From: Candidatus Krumholzibacteriota bacterium
GTDB taxonomy: Bacteria > Krumholzibacteriota > Krumholzibacteriia > LZORAL124-64-63
Assembly (NCBI GenBank): GCA_039714075.1
Contig: JBDLKA010000019.1
Span: forward strand, 1-46,346
DNA: 46,346 bases
Direction of reading: 5' to 3'
Shown here: in pieces, positions 25,659 to 32,786 of the stretch
How the letters are laid out: the number at the start of each line of letters is the position of its first letter
How positions within the stretch are numbered: the stretch's first letter is position 1
The notes under the pieces: generated by a model
Seen by the model: the letters and a program-made list of their open reading frames with translations, nothing else
Told to the model about the DNA's origin: nothing
Databases searched by the model: none
Position numbers and translations under genes: made by a program

Positions 25659-26693
25659 TCAAAAACGGTAGCCGAAGGACAGCCTGCTGACCTTGGGCAA
25701 TCCCCGGGCCTGCGGCACCGAGGCGAAGTCGAAGGTGATCGCCTGGCCGACCCAGCGGTCCATGTCCACGCCGAACCCGAAGGTCGTGTCGCGGATATCG
25801 CCGTAGGCGGCGCTCTTGTAACCGAACCTCACGTACAGGGAGCGCAAGTAGTTCCACTCGACACCGTACCCGAATTCCTCCTGGGCGGTGTCCAGTCCGA
25901 AACCGTAGTCCTCCTGGTCGTTGTCCCACTTGTAGAGCGGCGCCAGATAGTCCGCAACCACCAGAAGCCCCATGAACTCGCTGTGGTACAGGCTGAAGGC
26001 GATTCCCAGGGTGGCCTTGCGCGGCATGGGATCGCTCTGGTCGGCATCCACGTGCTTGATATCCGGACCCAGGTTGGCGACGGCCAGGCCGATATTCGAA
26101 CGCAGGGAAGGGACCTTCCACAGCAGACCCACGTCCACCCCGAAGCTGTCGCCGCTGCCGCCGCCCTGGGGATCCTGGATCATCGAATCGTCGGACAGCT
26201 TGTCCCGGAAATATTTGACACCCAGACCCACACCGATGTTGCGCGTGACACGGACCCCGTAGTTCGCCCCGAAGGCAAACATGTAGGAGCTGAAAAGGCC
26301 TTTGGGATCACCGTTTTCGTCGGTGGCCTGCTGGTCCCCCATGTCCAGGTAGTTGAAATAGGCACCGATCGCCCCGGTGGAACCCATGGGGGCCGCGTAC
26401 CCGAGCCAGGTTAGGCCGATGTCGTCAGCCAGGCCTTCAGCGAGGCGGGAATACATGACGTGCACGTCATGATCCTTGGGCCGCTGCGGCAGGAAGGCGA
26501 GTCCGCCGGGGTTCCACCACATGGACGTCGCATCCTGGGACAGGGCCGTGCCCGCTTCCCCGAGGGCGTTGTAACGGGCGCCGACCGGGAAACTGAGGTT
26601 GATGGCCCCGGCGCCGGAACCGGCCAAAGCCGCACCGGCCATGCCCATGACGAGAACCGCCAACAGGGCGGCCACCACAAAGATCCTTCTCAT
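25659..26693 (-). CDS. porV: PorV/PorQ-family T9SS outer-membrane beta-barrel
   Basis: Signal peptide. LSFPVGARYNALGEAGTA...MWWNPGGLA (FadL/PorV N-terminus), DVGLLW, NLGP, terminal SFGYRF. Directly downstream of the porU-like gene. GGAGG RBS. Confidence 0.85.
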   Translation of the reverse strand: MRRIFVVAALLAVLVMGMAGAALAGSGAGAINLSFPVGARYNALGEAGTALSQDATSMWWNPGGLAFLPQRPKDHDVHVMYSRLAEGLADDIGLTWLGYAAPMGSTGAIGAYFNYLDMGDQQATDENGDPKGLFSSYMFAFGANYGVRVTRNIGVGLGVKYFRDKLSDDSMIQDPQGGGSGDSFGVDVGLLWKVPSLRSNIGLAVANLGPDIKHVDADQSDPMPRKATLGIAFSLYHSEFMGLLVVADYLAPLYKWDNDQEDYGFGLDTAQEEFGYGVEWNYLRSLYVRFGYKSAAYGDIRDTTFGFGVDMDRWVGQAITFDFASVPQARGLPKVSRLSFGYRF

Positions 26694-29700: not shown

Positions 29701-31229
29701 TGGTGCAGACGCAACAGGGCGTCCGGTACGGCTTCGCCTCCGGTGGGCACGGCCTCGACGGCCGGCACCCTGCGGGGGGCGCCGGGTAGGGGCGACGGCG
29801 TGGCCGCCGCCTCCCAGGTCAACCAATAGGTCGCATGGCCGGCGAAGGGATGATCGTAGTGGGCGTCCCTTCCCGCTTCGGGATCCAGCCGGTCGGTCCA
29901 GGCGCTGGTCGGAACACCGTAGAAGCGGATTTCATCGTCCAGGTTCCACTCACCGTCGCCGCCGTCCCGGACTTCGATGGCCACTTCGTTCAATTCCACA
30001 CGTTCGCTCTGGAGGGAATCGGGCAGGCCCGCATCCGCGGCCAGGGCCAGGCCGCCGCCCCGGTAGAGGCGCAGCTTGTCGGGATCGATATCGCTGGTGG
30101 TAACTCCGTAAATGAGCAGTTGCTGTCCCGTCAGCCGGTACAGGCCGCTGCGGGAGACATCGAGTTTGACCCAGTGCGCCGTCAGGGCGAAAGGATCAAA
30201 AGCCTGGGCCTTGGCAACGTTTCGACGGGCCAGGGCGGCCTGGCGGCCACCCCGGGCCAGGGCCCGGAACAATTCGGCATTCAGGAGGCCGGCCGGAACG
30301 ACTTCGTTCCAGCGATCCTCCTGGCCGGAGGCTTCGAAATCACGGGCCAGGTTCAATTGCCGGCGTTGGGCGGCGCTGGACGGGTGGCTGATTTCCACGG
30401 TGATGCCGGCCAGGACACCGCCCTTGACTCCGAGGGAAACCATCCCGCCCACGAGGGGCACGGACCGGTGGACCGCGGGGTCCCCCATCGTCACCAGGTC
30501 GCCTTCGACCAGGGCCTCGCGCGGTTCGCGCCACCATGTGACGTCGAACACCCTGGCGAAAACCGGCTGCCGCGTGGGCACGGCCAGGGACAGGCTGAGA
30601 CCGGGAGGCAACAGGCGCGGATTCTCGGAAAATTCATCTTCCACGCGCCGGGGCAGGGCCCACTTCAGATCTTCATCGGCAAGGGACTGCCAGTCGGCCG
30701 GAGACTTCAGGACGGGGAAATCGATCCGCACCACCGATTGCTCGGAGCTGGACGAAAGGAGACGGACACGGGGCGTCCCCATTTCCGCGGACTGCCCGAC
30801 CGGCTCGGCGGCCATGGCTGCGGCCGGCGAGACCACGGACAGGACGACGAAACAGCCGACAAAAATCGCCACCTGCCAGACCAGGGTTTTCGGACCCAAC
30901 TCGCGTCCGTGCGGCAGAAGGCCGGTGTGGGTGGGAAACAGGAATCGATCGCGGCCCATCCGGCCGAGTTTTTGAAATAGATTTTCCAAATCGGGAATCA
31001 TGCCGAATACTCCTCCGACCACGGCCGGCCAACTGGAAAAAGGCATCAATAACAGAATGACAAGGCTTGCCAGGCCGCCCCCCAATTCCAGCCGCCAATC
31101 GGGATGGTCGTAATGGGGAACGACATCCAGCACGGCGTGGGAAGCCAGGCCCGCCGCCGCGCCCAGGTAGACGTTGCCCGTCACACCGCCCGCCAGGGCA
31201 CCCGCAGCGAAATGGGTGAACAGGCACAT
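26754..31229 (-). CDS. porU: PorU-like C25 (gingipain-family) T9SS sortase with N-terminally fused ~140-aa membrane His/Asp hydrolase-like domain
   Basis: AAGGAG RBS before ATG 31229. WVKLDVSRSGLYRL, IYDNFSGG, CGRLP, WRNRVLFTADD, catalytic dyad YVGHG...FSCDVG, FFGDP, D..GP.I, CTD/FlgD-Ig LFPNP...WDGRD...ANGTYLF...KLVIMR. Confidence 0.85.
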   Translation of the reverse strand: MCLFTHFAAGALAGGVTGNVYLGAAAGLASHAVLDVVPHYDHPDWRLELGGGLASLVILLLMPFSSWPAVVGGVFGMIPDLENLFQKLGRMGRDRFLFPTHTGLLPHGRELGPKTLVWQVAIFVGCFVVLSVVSPAAAMAAEPVGQSAEMGTPRVRLLSSSSEQSVVRIDFPVLKSPADWQSLADEDLKWALPRRVEDEFSENPRLLPPGLSLSLAVPTRQPVFARVFDVTWWREPREALVEGDLVTMGDPAVHRSVPLVGGMVSLGVKGGVLAGITVEISHPSSAAQRRQLNLARDFEASGQEDRWNEVVPAGLLNAELFRALARGGRQAALARRNVAKAQAFDPFALTAHWVKLDVSRSGLYRLTGQQLLIYGVTTSDIDPDKLRLYRGGGLALAADAGLPDSLQSERVELNEVAIEVRDGGDGEWNLDDEIRFYGVPTSAWTDRLDPEAGRDAHYDHPFAGHATYWLTWEAAATPSPLPGAPRRVPAVEAVPTGGEAVPDALLRLHQERQVRDTAGYFEDNWAWDNTITSSRPESFTLRTPVPGSSARFVIDLAGVYPRTTWSYVFEAAGWLNDDQANQGTVTFNRSAQNDSLRLRIIGDSQSVTAGLNRITLKNINNNAGATTLALALDSYDIFYWAGLDLTDRPGQLEFAHWGEHVAVPGTAVDLQLTAPAGVTPLMWEVSDPAAATAYTGTADTEAPAIFTYGFVREPETDRHFVAAVPGDLLNVDSGRRTNPVSLRSNPVDWDYIVVHAGQFEDPARDLADFHSTNLPGVASPRATHVSANDIYDNFSGGQKDVHAIRNYLKHVFEQGGHRLRFVCFLGNTSRDFRHYRDPDPAFELFDFLPTVLRTNYPVIPSSYGDMAYATDDGLVSFESGTWVSPDLPDLACGRLPASSLGEARDLVDRAIRYSRSPEEGLWRNRVLFTADDCVKFSTWPDPVLGEDQHTVQAEVLSNNLLPVSLDVQKVYGVAYDFPPSSRVKPAMRGDINNELSRGATIYYYVGHGAEDNLADEQIFQSSDITNLTNGMKRPVFIAFSCDVGVFDSTSRLSMAEQFVLAGNGGGIGAICASQVSFITPNEHLSNAFFSNLYPDRHVLATVTPAEALMLAKNTYVISRSNSQRYNFFGDPGLRLPNPEDDLVYAAASLDTLKAGALQSVVVGAAGSKFLYGPGDNYDLLAQDARFDQGYINSLRDSSIAGGGSVKVPRWNTYVAAGSPVFIGTGVAGAGDLKVDFKVPTKIRYGEDARLRTLVGSPDDMHAAVQYVPAVVSATGPSDDVTGPEIGLAFEDNRFKVSPGTLLNATLADTSGISILGTTPGNSLLMEFDKSGFMTDVTGSFAYDANSYVQGRVSIPLPGDLKMGLHLVSLYASDALGNVGTDTLSFEVVPALVPEIDRITLFPNPTAGPCRLIFELSDPMEVQWEIYTLAGNRLKTLRRQFSQAGPRILEWDGRDNHGDEIANGTYLFVLRGLGGGSQGRDITRTGKLVIMR

Positions 31230-31236
31230 GGGCGCC

Positions 31237-31425
31237 CTACTCCTTGTCTTCGCCGGAGGTGGAAATCTTTTCGGCTTCTTCGGGAAGCATGATGGGGATG
31301 TTTCCATCTACCCGATAGCGCACCGAGCAGGCTTGGCAATAGAGCCAGGTGTGTTCGTCGTCGGGCGTCACGGAACCGCGGCACACGGGACAGGCCAGGA
31401 TCGCAAGCAACTTCGGGTCGAGCAT
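31237..31425 (-). CDS. Trm112/YcaR-family small zinc-ribbon protein
   Basis: LDPKLLAILACPVCRG...LYCQAC...YRVDGNIPIMLPEEA. CAGGAGG RBS. Confidence 0.9.
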   Translation of the reverse strand: MLDPKLLAILACPVCRGSVTPDDEHTWLYCQACSVRYRVDGNIPIMLPEEAEKISTSGEDKE

Positions 31426-31463
31426 CAACCGCCTCCTGAGGGGATTGCCAGCATTACGACACT

Positions 31464-31485
31464 ATTCGGGCGCTAATTCGGGCGC
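31464..31485. repeat. 10-bp direct repeat just downstream of the -10 element
   Basis: ATTCGGGCGC at 31464-31473 and 31476-31485. Confidence 0.6.
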
Positions 31486-31486
31486 C

Positions 31487-31514
31487 ATTGTAATACGTCC
31501 GGGAAAGGTTGCAA
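31487..31514 (-). promoter_or_regulatory. Proximal sigma70-like promoter of the Trm112-porU-porV operon
   Basis: TTGCAA-N16-TACAAT on the minus strand. Confidence 0.5.
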
Positions 31515-31615
31515 ACAGACCATCGCTGTCGGGCAAAGAAATACCGGCCCCATCGCCTGGCATGACCGGGTCGGCTTAGGTGAGAATACGGGTTGTCGAA
31601 GAGGTTGGCATGAGG

Positions 31616-31644
31616 ATAGTACAACATTTCCACCCCCAAGTCAA
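31616..31644 (-). promoter_or_regulatory. Distal sigma70-like promoter upstream of the Trm112-porU operon
   Basis: TTGACT-N17-TACTAT on the minus strand. Confidence 0.6.
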
Positions 31645-31679
31645 CCCTGCGAGCATCCCTCCAAGCATTCCGCCAGAGC

Positions 31680-32660
31680 TCAACCCTTGCCGGATTCCTC
31701 GAAAACGCCGATATCCAGGAATTTCTGCAGCCTGTGGTCGAGCAGTTCCTGCGTGGGGAATTTCTCGAGTTCGGCCAGGGTGTCGAGGATGACCTTCTTG
31801 ATTTCCAGGCTCATGCCCTGGTGATCCCGGTGGGCACCCCCCACGGGTTCATTGATGATGAGATCCACGACCCCCAGCTTCACGGCGTCGGCAGCGGTCA
31901 GCTTCATGTTCTTGGCCGCTTCCTTGCTTTTGGCGCCGTCGCGCCAGAGGATCGCGGCGCAGCCTTCGGGGCTGATCACCGAATAGATGGAATTTTCCAG
32001 CATGAAGATGCGGTCGCCCACGCCCAGGGCCAGAGCGCCGCCGCTGCCGCCCTCGCCGGTGACGATGCAGATGATGGGCACCGGCATGTCGGCCATCTCG
32101 CGCAGGTTGCGGGCAATGGCCTCGGCCTGGCCTCTCTCTTCGGCACCCACACCGGGATAGGCGCCCGGAGTGTCGATGAAAGTCACGATCGGCCGTTCGA
32201 AGCGCACCGCCATTTCCATCAGGCGCAGGGCCTTGCGATAACCCTCGGGGTGGGCCATGCCGAAATTCCGGCGGATGTTGCTCTTGGTGTCCCGGCCCTT
32301 CTGGTGTCCGAGAATCATGAGTTGCCGGTCACCCAGGGTGGCCATGCCCGCGACGATGGCCTCGTCGTCCCGGAACATCCGGTCGCCGTGCAGCTCCACG
32401 AAATCGTCGAATATGTAGTGGATGTAGTCGTTGGTCGTGGGCCTGCGGGGATGACGGGCCAACTGCACCCGCTGCCACGGCTCGAGCTTGGCGAAAATCT
32501 CCTTGCCCAGCTTGCTGGCCTTGGCCCGCAGACGCTCCACGTCTTCGGCCACATCCACGCCGCGGACCGAGGCGGAATCCTGCAGGGTCTGGATCCGTTC
32601 CTCCAACTCCACGATGGGCATTTCGAAATCCAGCCAGAGTCCTTTTTTCTTCCAATCCAT
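31680..32660 (-). CDS. accA: Acetyl-CoA carboxylase carboxyltransferase alpha subunit
   Basis: LDFEMPI, WQRVQLARHPRRP, ELHGDR, NFGMAHPEGYRKALR, IDTPGAYPG, GEGGSGGA, YSVISPEGCAAILW. Confidence 0.97.
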   Translation of the reverse strand: MDWKKKGLWLDFEMPIVELEERIQTLQDSASVRGVDVAEDVERLRAKASKLGKEIFAKLEPWQRVQLARHPRRPTTNDYIHYIFDDFVELHGDRMFRDDEAIVAGMATLGDRQLMILGHQKGRDTKSNIRRNFGMAHPEGYRKALRLMEMAVRFERPIVTFIDTPGAYPGVGAEERGQAEAIARNLREMADMPVPIICIVTGEGGSGGALALGVGDRIFMLENSIYSVISPEGCAAILWRDGAKSKEAAKNMKLTAADAVKLGVVDLIINEPVGGAHRDHQGMSLEIKKVILDTLAELEKFPTQELLDHRLQKFLDIGVFEESGKG

Positions 32661-32786
32661 CTGGTTGCCTTTCAGCGGCCGGCAGGCCATTTCTGCGCAC
32701 GGTCCGTCCGGCGCGGAACCCTTACGGGGATGTGGGATTTAGGCACTTCGACCCTTCGGTGTCAAGATTTATGGGACCCGGCCCCA

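Follow-up and report, generated by a model that had tools for sequence, protein, structure and literature searches.

PorU is the enzyme that fixes type IX secretion system (T9SS) cargo to the cell surface, on a lipid or glycan acceptor. In Porphyromonas gingivalis, according to passages in two publications (PMC8545088, PMC11285876), PorU is active on the cell surface, where it is bound to PorV, and is itself exported by the T9SS by means of a C-terminal domain that is not cleaved. The porU gene described here departs from this arrangement at its 5′ end. It lies in a window of 46,346 nucleotides (the whole stretch of DNA that was analysed; assembly GCA_039714075.1, contig JBDLKA010000019.1) from a Candidatus Krumholzibacteriota bacterium. 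The minus strand of the window carries a row of four genes, namely an accA-like gene, a Trm112/YcaR-like gene, a long open reading frame (ORF) and an ORF of the PorV family. The long ORF encodes PorU, preceded in the same frame by a small membrane domain. Its product is probably a two-part precursor, consisting of a membrane-bound metal hydrolase and PorU, which signal peptidase I would split.

In this scheme, the first part (residues 1–134) would be a small polytopic protein of the inner membrane, belonging to an uncharacterised family, whose nine histidine, aspartate and glutamate residues would in all likelihood make up a metal site on the side of the membrane that faces the cytoplasm. Such a protein would act as a metal-dependent hydrolase, probably a phosphoesterase, on a lipid or on a lipid-linked precursor of the envelope. 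The second part would serve as the T9SS sortase. The last helix of the first part, running from the cytoplasm to the periplasm, would form an internal signal sequence together with the P-x-x-A-x-A segment that follows it; the Sec machinery would insert this helix and signal peptidase I would cut after A140. The small enzyme would then remain in the inner membrane, and the freed PorU, by virtue of its own C-terminal domain, would pass through the T9SS to the cell surface.

A membrane domain in frame with PorU

The long ORF is that of the T9SS sortase PorU. Residues 351–1489 match the PorU model NF033707 from position 5 to position 1094 of 1095 (466.8 bits, cut-off 420), which means that the C-terminal domain is complete. 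The Peptidase_C25 family (PF01364) is matched at residues 751–1135 (E 9.9e-73), and the solved structure of P. gingivalis PorU (PDB 6za2) aligns with residues 788–1473 (E 2.1e-33). The C25 region contains YYYVGHGAEDN and IAFSCDVGVF, which we take to be the catalytic His and Cys motifs of the peptidase. The fused PorU has no ordinary cleavable signal peptide at its N-terminus and begins instead with a five-helix domain of about 134 residues.

Translation from the ATG at 31229–31227 yields MCLFTHFAAGALAG...SHAVLDVVPHYDH...GMIPDLE...FPTHTGLLPHGR, a hydrophobic helix that ends in AAAMA before AE, and then VRLLSSSSEQSVVRIDFP; the ORF runs from 31229 to 26754 and encodes 1491 residues. A first, sequence-only reading of this DNA had chosen the same start on account of a ribosome-binding site and had described hydrophobic helices with His/Asp motifs at the N-terminus. 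Both observations hold: AAGGAG stands at 31245–31240, just ahead of the Trm112-like stop codon (TAG, 31239–31237), and the residues concerned are conserved across homologs. Moreover, the homologs, fused or stand-alone, all begin at the methionine of MCLFTHF, which indicates that the start at 31229 is correct. The frame is also open at an ATG at 31307, but this codon lies inside the Trm112-like ORF and was discarded as a start.

The domain was searched for with residues 1–160 as query in a full HMMER scan of 1.84 billion representative proteins. The sequence-only reading had proposed a search of this kind with the N-terminus. In all, 230 representatives matched at E≤0.001; E-values of 1e-10 or less were reached by 54 of them, and of 1e-30 or less by 12. 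The majority are stand-alone proteins 130–145 residues long, and a few, of about 1500 residues, carry the match at their N-terminus. One representative of 537 residues (P0048), with eight matching stretches, is an unrelated tandem repeat of a unit of about 52 residues and was rejected as a false positive. In an alignment of 114 sequences, H31, D35, H39 and D80 are invariant, and H6, G10, G27, P38, G72, P79, E82, P99, H101 and H107 are conserved to at least 90%. The candidate metal ligands are H6, H31, D35, H39, D41, D80, E82, H101 and H107, and all nine are kept in each of the 51 distinct fused sequences. An AlphaFold2 model built with the family alignment (mean predicted local distance difference test score 96.4, predicted template-modelling score 0.90) places helices at residues 3–17, 20–36, 45–61, 67–87 and 113–133, with a short one at 99–102. 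The number of homologs and the invariant residues together place the domain far beyond chance, and judged by this conservation it is a real protein under selection.

These data bear on the idea that the N-terminal region is merely a long, inactive signal or anchor, or that PorU is mainly translated from an internal methionine, M91 (ATG 30959). The sequence-only reading had itself raised a start at this codon, for the case that the codons upstream of it were not conserved. M91, the charged residues after it, the hydrophobic helix and the A-x-A motif do mimic a signal peptide with a long n-region, and the domain of the window on its own matches no family. Against this stand the nine polar His/Asp/Glu positions, kept throughout the fused forms and in distant stand-alone homologs, and a high-confidence fold that covers all 134 residues. 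The column of M91 holds either M or L among homologs, with L in several of them, and the homologs start at the upstream methionine. We therefore give hardly any credence to a degenerate leader, although an internal start at M91 is possible as the source of an additional product.

The fusion itself is real and conserved. In a profile search of 208 genomes of the phylum, the domain was found in 98. In family f1, to which the window belongs, 52 of 90 genomes match and the domain is fused, the ORF measuring about 1470–1620 residues where the contig allows. In the sister families it is a gene of its own, of 134–137 codons, placed directly 5′ of porU. Separate ORFs were found in f3 (34 of 43 genomes; about 134–180 residues), f7 (7/8), f8 (1/1) and f9 (3/13), and no genome of f2, f4, f5 or f6 matched. 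The domain is in frame with PorU in 51 distinct sequences. Among 26 usable metagenome loci (29 less three in which the match was truncated or started elsewhere than at residue 1), it reads through into PorU in 25, and one diverges in the manner of a frameshift. A further 101 proteins, each standing for a 90% cluster and measuring 820–2610 residues, carry this N-terminus, all of them with PF01364; where they have public names, these are 'hypothetical protein', 'C25 family cysteine peptidase' or 'type IX secretion system sortase PorU'. The membrane domain in front of PorU that the sequence-only reading had reported from a single locus is thus a recurrent feature.

Some proteins of 136–137 residues, 70–80% identical to the window, appear to stand alone. 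We considered them as recent splits and rejected this, the related metagenome loci being fused in 25 of 26 cases; they are probably truncations or frameshifts. In two relatives (L029 in G119:C20, and L148), the fused frame is lost a short way beyond the signal-peptidase-like site and then gives Arg/Gly-rich nonsense. These cases look like frameshifts, due either to assembly errors or to pseudogenes.

The split arrangement was followed in 23 stand-alone loci from four families. The sequence-only reading had suggested asking whether homologs that stand alone are flanked by the Trm112-like gene and porU, and had held that an absence of linkage would count against it. In 22 loci porU follows directly, and the remaining locus stops at the contig end; a Trm112-like gene and accA precede the small gene in 22, with one locus cut by the contig end. 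porV comes after porU in all 17 loci that extend far enough. In the two split loci that were read fully, the stop codon of the small gene overlaps the start of porU (ATGA and TGATG), and PorU has an ordinary signal peptide at its N-terminus, e.g. MKRYLLVGLAVLLIPVFSKA. Of five genomes that lack the domain (taken from f1, f2, f4 and f6), all have accA, porU and porV, four have the Trm112-like gene, and in all five PorU begins with a signal-peptide-like N-terminus. In a tree of 51 domain sequences picked from the loci at hand (21 fused, 23 stand-alone and 7 from Bacillota), the stand-alone sequences of Krumholzibacteria form one clade (support 100/100). No more than one or two state changes are required by the tree; one event, be it a fusion or a fission, is enough, and the direction may be either.

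The last helix as a putative export signal

The sequence-only reading had proposed that the last transmembrane helix doubles as the signal peptide of PorU, which otherwise starts with an ordinary one. The latter point is borne out by the relatives that lack the fusion, and the former gains from the conservation of the junction, which was compared in the 51 distinct sequences (taken from 65 fused ORFs, each 200 residues or longer). Position 135 is proline in 48 of them; position 138, corresponding to –3, is alanine in 39 and valine in 7 (A/V in 46/51); position 140, corresponding to –1, is alanine in 49; and position 141 is alanine in 44. All 51 fit a pattern of P or G after the last helix followed by small-x-small. 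The junction thus displays the features of a signal peptidase I substrate, namely a hydrophobic h-region (helix 113–133), a helix breaker and small residues at –3 and –1, and the same genome contains two signal peptidase I genes that score above the cut-off of TIGR02227. Within the fused N-terminus, only the last helix with the A-x-A motif resembles a signal peptide, and only one hydrophobic segment precedes the conserved N-terminus of mature PorU (...RVRLLSSS..VVRIDFPV). The stand-alone proteins, on the other hand, end 0–35 residues past the last helix, most of them within 10, and are devoid of this A-x-A segment. In relatives without the domain, PorU has its signal peptide at the place occupied by the last helix of the fused protein.

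Since the cell surface is where PorU acts, and since the T9SS secretes it, PorU must leave the inner membrane. Judging from the residues at the junction, the last helix is probably an internal signal sequence, and we infer that signal peptidase I cuts between A140 and A141 so that the two products separate. Alternatively, the domain might stay attached and tether PorU to the inner membrane, in which case the periplasm, and not the surface, would be its place of action. The continuous frame of the fused gene would be in keeping with such an anchor. The conserved A-x-A site with its helix-breaking proline, the full C-terminal domain retained by PorU and the cleavable-looking signal peptides that relatives have at the same place all speak against it, as does the surface location of characterised, T9SS-secreted PorU insofar as it is stated in passages of PMC8545088 and PMC11285876. 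An uncleaved anchor is accordingly very improbable.

The part of PorU that follows the junction, residues 141–350, is an extension of about 200 residues ahead of the region covered by NF033707. It had been described from the sequence as resembling a C25 propeptide. No Pfam family matches it (only two families match the whole protein at E≤1), so this label finds no support there; what stands is that in relatives mature PorU has this stretch as its conserved N-terminus. By tblastn, the extension was also found in PorU of two of the five relatives without the membrane domain, both from f1, at 32% identity.

The features of the locus are compiled in Table 1. Across the class, the fatty-acid synthesis gene (accA-like) and the Trm112-like zinc-finger gene are constantly paired with the genes for T9SS attachment.

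Table 1. Coordinates in the window of the fused gene, its parts and its neighbours
Feature	Position	Strand	Basis or remark
accA-like gene	31680..32690	(-)	Conserved upstream member of the gene row (tblastn); named after its translation rather than by a family scan
Trm112/YcaR-like zinc-finger gene, 63 aa	31237..31428	(-)	PF03966, E 1.7e-10; 7 nt before the start codon of the fused ORF
Shine-Dalgarno-like AAGGAG	31240..31245	(-)	10 nt 5′ of the start codon, within the 3′ end of the Trm112-like gene; read from the sequence
Membrane domain, aa 1-134, five helices	30828..31229	(-)	Conservation in the 114-sequence alignment; AlphaFold2 model
Last transmembrane helix (aa 113-133) and c-region SPAAAMA (aa 134-140)	30810..30893	(-)	Putative internal signal sequence
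Extension at the N-terminus of mature PorU (about aa 141-350)	30180..30809	(-)	5′ of the part covered by NF033707
PorU core: C25 peptidase domain and C-terminal domain, including stop codon	26754..30179	(-)	NF033707, PF01364, 6za2
PorV-family outer-membrane protein gene	25659..26693	(-)	Directly 3′ of porU; NF033709, 179.8 bits, cut-off 90

Topology, family identity and distribution of the membrane domain

PorU has to be periplasmic, and consequently the last helix must run from inside to outside and the loop in front of it (residues 88–112) must be cytoplasmic. The charges of the loops are consistent with the positive-inside rule: among 114 homologs, this loop contains on average 3.45 lysine and arginine residues, as compared with 0.30 and 0.83 in the two loops of the other side. 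The conserved His, Asp and Glu residues are found where helix 1 starts and where helices 2 and 4 terminate, or in the loops that follow, a placement which would put the putative ligands on the cytoplasmic face.

The pattern formed by these residues (H-x3-D-x2-P-H, P-D-x-E and two further histidines) is what one would expect a metal site to look like. Its H-x3-D element resembles, in our view, the motif of zinc phospholipase C and P1 nuclease. The sequence-only reading had called the domain YdjM-like. YdjM (PF04307), Zn_dep_PLPC (PF00882) and DUF4184 (PF13803) belong to one Pfam clan, and members of the present family touch all three at E≤1: 70 of the 114 members PF04307 (best E 3.8e-5), 28 Zn_dep_PLPC, weakly (best E 0.0037), and 6 DUF4184 (best E 3e-5). 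Four of the 16 members inspected singly match YdjM at 13.4–17.8 bits, below the gathering cut-off of 29 bits, and these weak matches align residues of about 53–127 of the family with positions 8–82 of the profile only, the order of motifs being different. In the ESM Atlas, unnamed clusters of 134–146 residues stand at 0.92–0.94, and the nearest named cluster, YdjM, at 0.76. The weak matches to PF04307 thus uphold the YdjM lead in part; no match seen reaches the cut-off, and neither the profile comparison nor the fold searches considered below make it a membership. The family is uncharacterised, and 'YdjM-like' is a fair lead.

In the window's own genome, PF04307 has no match at E≤10. True YdjM genes occur in 3 of 41 relatives only, elsewhere in those genomes. 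One relative has a weak YdjM match (G025:C1:248691-248885, E 5.4e-4, in an open frame of 134 codons) that is not near porU; the same peptide stretches occur in two frames, and it seems to be a disrupted duplicate of that genome's true YdjM gene. A search of PDB sequences with the family profile returned no match at E≤10, none of the 114 homologs matched a PHROG family, and NCBIfam gave three single matches at chance level. A limited search of the literature retrieved no paper linking YdjM-like proteins to the T9SS, none describing the T9SS of Krumholzibacteria and none pairing two of the terms YdjM, YbcI, DUF457 and PF04307; it yielded no experimentally established function of YdjM that could be carried over.

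The family extends well beyond the phylum. Distant stand-alone members carry names from Limnochorda and other Bacillota, and a scan of species genomes gave 39 loci, mostly in metagenome-assembled genomes of Bacillota and some in Patescibacteria. To our knowledge, neither Bacillota nor Patescibacteria possess a T9SS, which implies that the family is not specific to this system. The neighbours were scanned in 21 of the 39 loci (65 proteins). SpoIIP adjoins the homolog in 11 of the 21, and a gene for a MurJ-family flippase lies directly upstream in nine, one locus having both; in two loci of Patescibacteria the homolog lies between a holB-like gene and the genes for frr and an M50 protease. In the Bacillota loci, the homolog comes directly after spoIIP, in rows of the type gpr-spoIIP-X-lepA or -hrcA, or after the flippase gene. 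Four loci have an extra ORF of about 107–112 residues without Pfam match between spoIIP and the homolog. These neighbours may faintly hint at a role in general envelope metabolism or in the metabolism of lipid-linked precursors.

Function of the domain and comparison with described systems

Several results weigh against the proposed metal hydrolase or against a link between it and the T9SS. The domain of the window has no Pfam match at E≤1 and matches neither an NCBIfam nor a PHROG family. An hhalign comparison of the family with a YdjM alignment composed of 19 close sequences, and thus of low diversity, gave a probability of 10.3% (E 0.003) over 30 N-terminal columns. No fold search rose above noise, be it with Foldseek against the PDB (best E 1.7), with VIA-align against 48,161 chains (best Z 4.3) or against BFVD; chains of phospholipase C and P1 nuclease were not among the Foldseek or VIA-align rows, which leaves these enzymes possible. 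Assignment as a hydrolase, drawn from motifs and sub-threshold matches, is therefore a reasoned guess. The charge rule is not clean either, given that the C-terminal tails of the stand-alone proteins contain on average 1.49 lysine and arginine residues. A look for RNA runs over positions 30400–31700 of the window returned none. Finally, the homologs in Limnochorda, other Bacillota and Patescibacteria make a T9SS-specific role doubtful, and 110 of the 208 phylum genomes have no match in the profile search, the five that were checked keeping porU and porV with a normal signal peptide.

The last two points are also those that would be expected if the fusion were a tolerated accident. According to this explanation, the domain is a general housekeeping protein of the envelope or of lipid metabolism that happens to share an operon with porU; in one family, the stop codon and the signal peptide of PorU were lost, which led to the same precursor architecture in the absence of any functional coupling. 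The accident would be harmless, because signal peptidase would separate the two products. The occurrence of the family beside SpoIIP, MurJ-family or holB-like/frr genes in phyla without a T9SS fits this explanation, as does the fact that one event of fusion or fission accounts for the tree. However, the place directly 5′ of porU has been kept in 22 of the 23 stand-alone loci, across four families, the genes overlap in both split loci that were read, and no fewer than 51 distinct sequences retain the fusion. When adjacency and fusion are conserved in this way, a functional link is the usual reading, although they fall short of proof. Taken together, a tolerated accident has a sizeable chance, somewhat below even, of being the right account, and we attach to it a weight similar to that of a T9SS accessory. 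The tie to PorU may be no more than one of co-expression.

It is tempting to speculate that the domain is an inner-membrane phosphoesterase that acts as a partner in T9SS anchoring, preparing or trimming at the cytoplasmic face a lipid-linked glycan destined for PorU. In this specific form the idea is unlikely, yet it would have some appealing consequences. Synthesis as a single precursor would ensure that enzyme and sortase are supplied 1:1; other members of the family would serve lipid-linked envelope pathways in Bacillota, beside MurJ-family flippases and SpoIIP; and a first function would be assigned to a family of about 230 representative clusters. Irrespective of this, the conserved fusion and the conserved neighbourhood mark the domain as a candidate partner enzyme for PorU, and the sharp His/Asp signature defines an unannotated protein family that spans several phyla.

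With regard to described systems, the PorU part resembles its counterpart from P. gingivalis (PG0026, the T9SS sortase or C-terminal signal peptidase, structure 6za2) in its C25 core, its C-terminal domain and the adjoining gene of the porV family. It differs in having a polytopic membrane domain in place of the ordinary signal peptide and about 200 extra residues (141–350) before the modelled part, and in coming from a member of the Krumholzibacteriia rather than of the Bacteroidota. The membrane domain shares with YdjM/YbcI (PF04307, 'membrane-bound metal-dependent hydrolase'), Zn_dep_PLPC and DUF4184 a small polytopic build, a histidine near the start of helix 1, an H-x3-D element and a P-D-x-D/E element; in contrast to YdjM, it stays below the 29-bit cut-off and presents its motifs in a different order.

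The precursor as a whole, an unusual architecture for a well-known sortase, also has parallels. In Bradyrhizobium, signal peptidase cleaves the FbcH cytochrome b/c1 precursor at a signal sequence that lies internally. In viral polyproteins, as exemplified by the core–E1 junction of hepatitis C virus (PMC5402940), the terminal hydrophobic segment of a membrane part is the signal of the exported part that follows, and signal peptidase separates the two. Compared with these viral and FbcH precursors, the downstream part of the present protein is the sortase of a secretion system, and its release is deduced from the junction. If cleavage takes place as proposed, the protein would be a clear bacterial case in which the final helix of a polytopic membrane protein also acts as export signal for the secreted enzyme encoded downstream, a precursor architecture that gene callers and domain annotation overlook.

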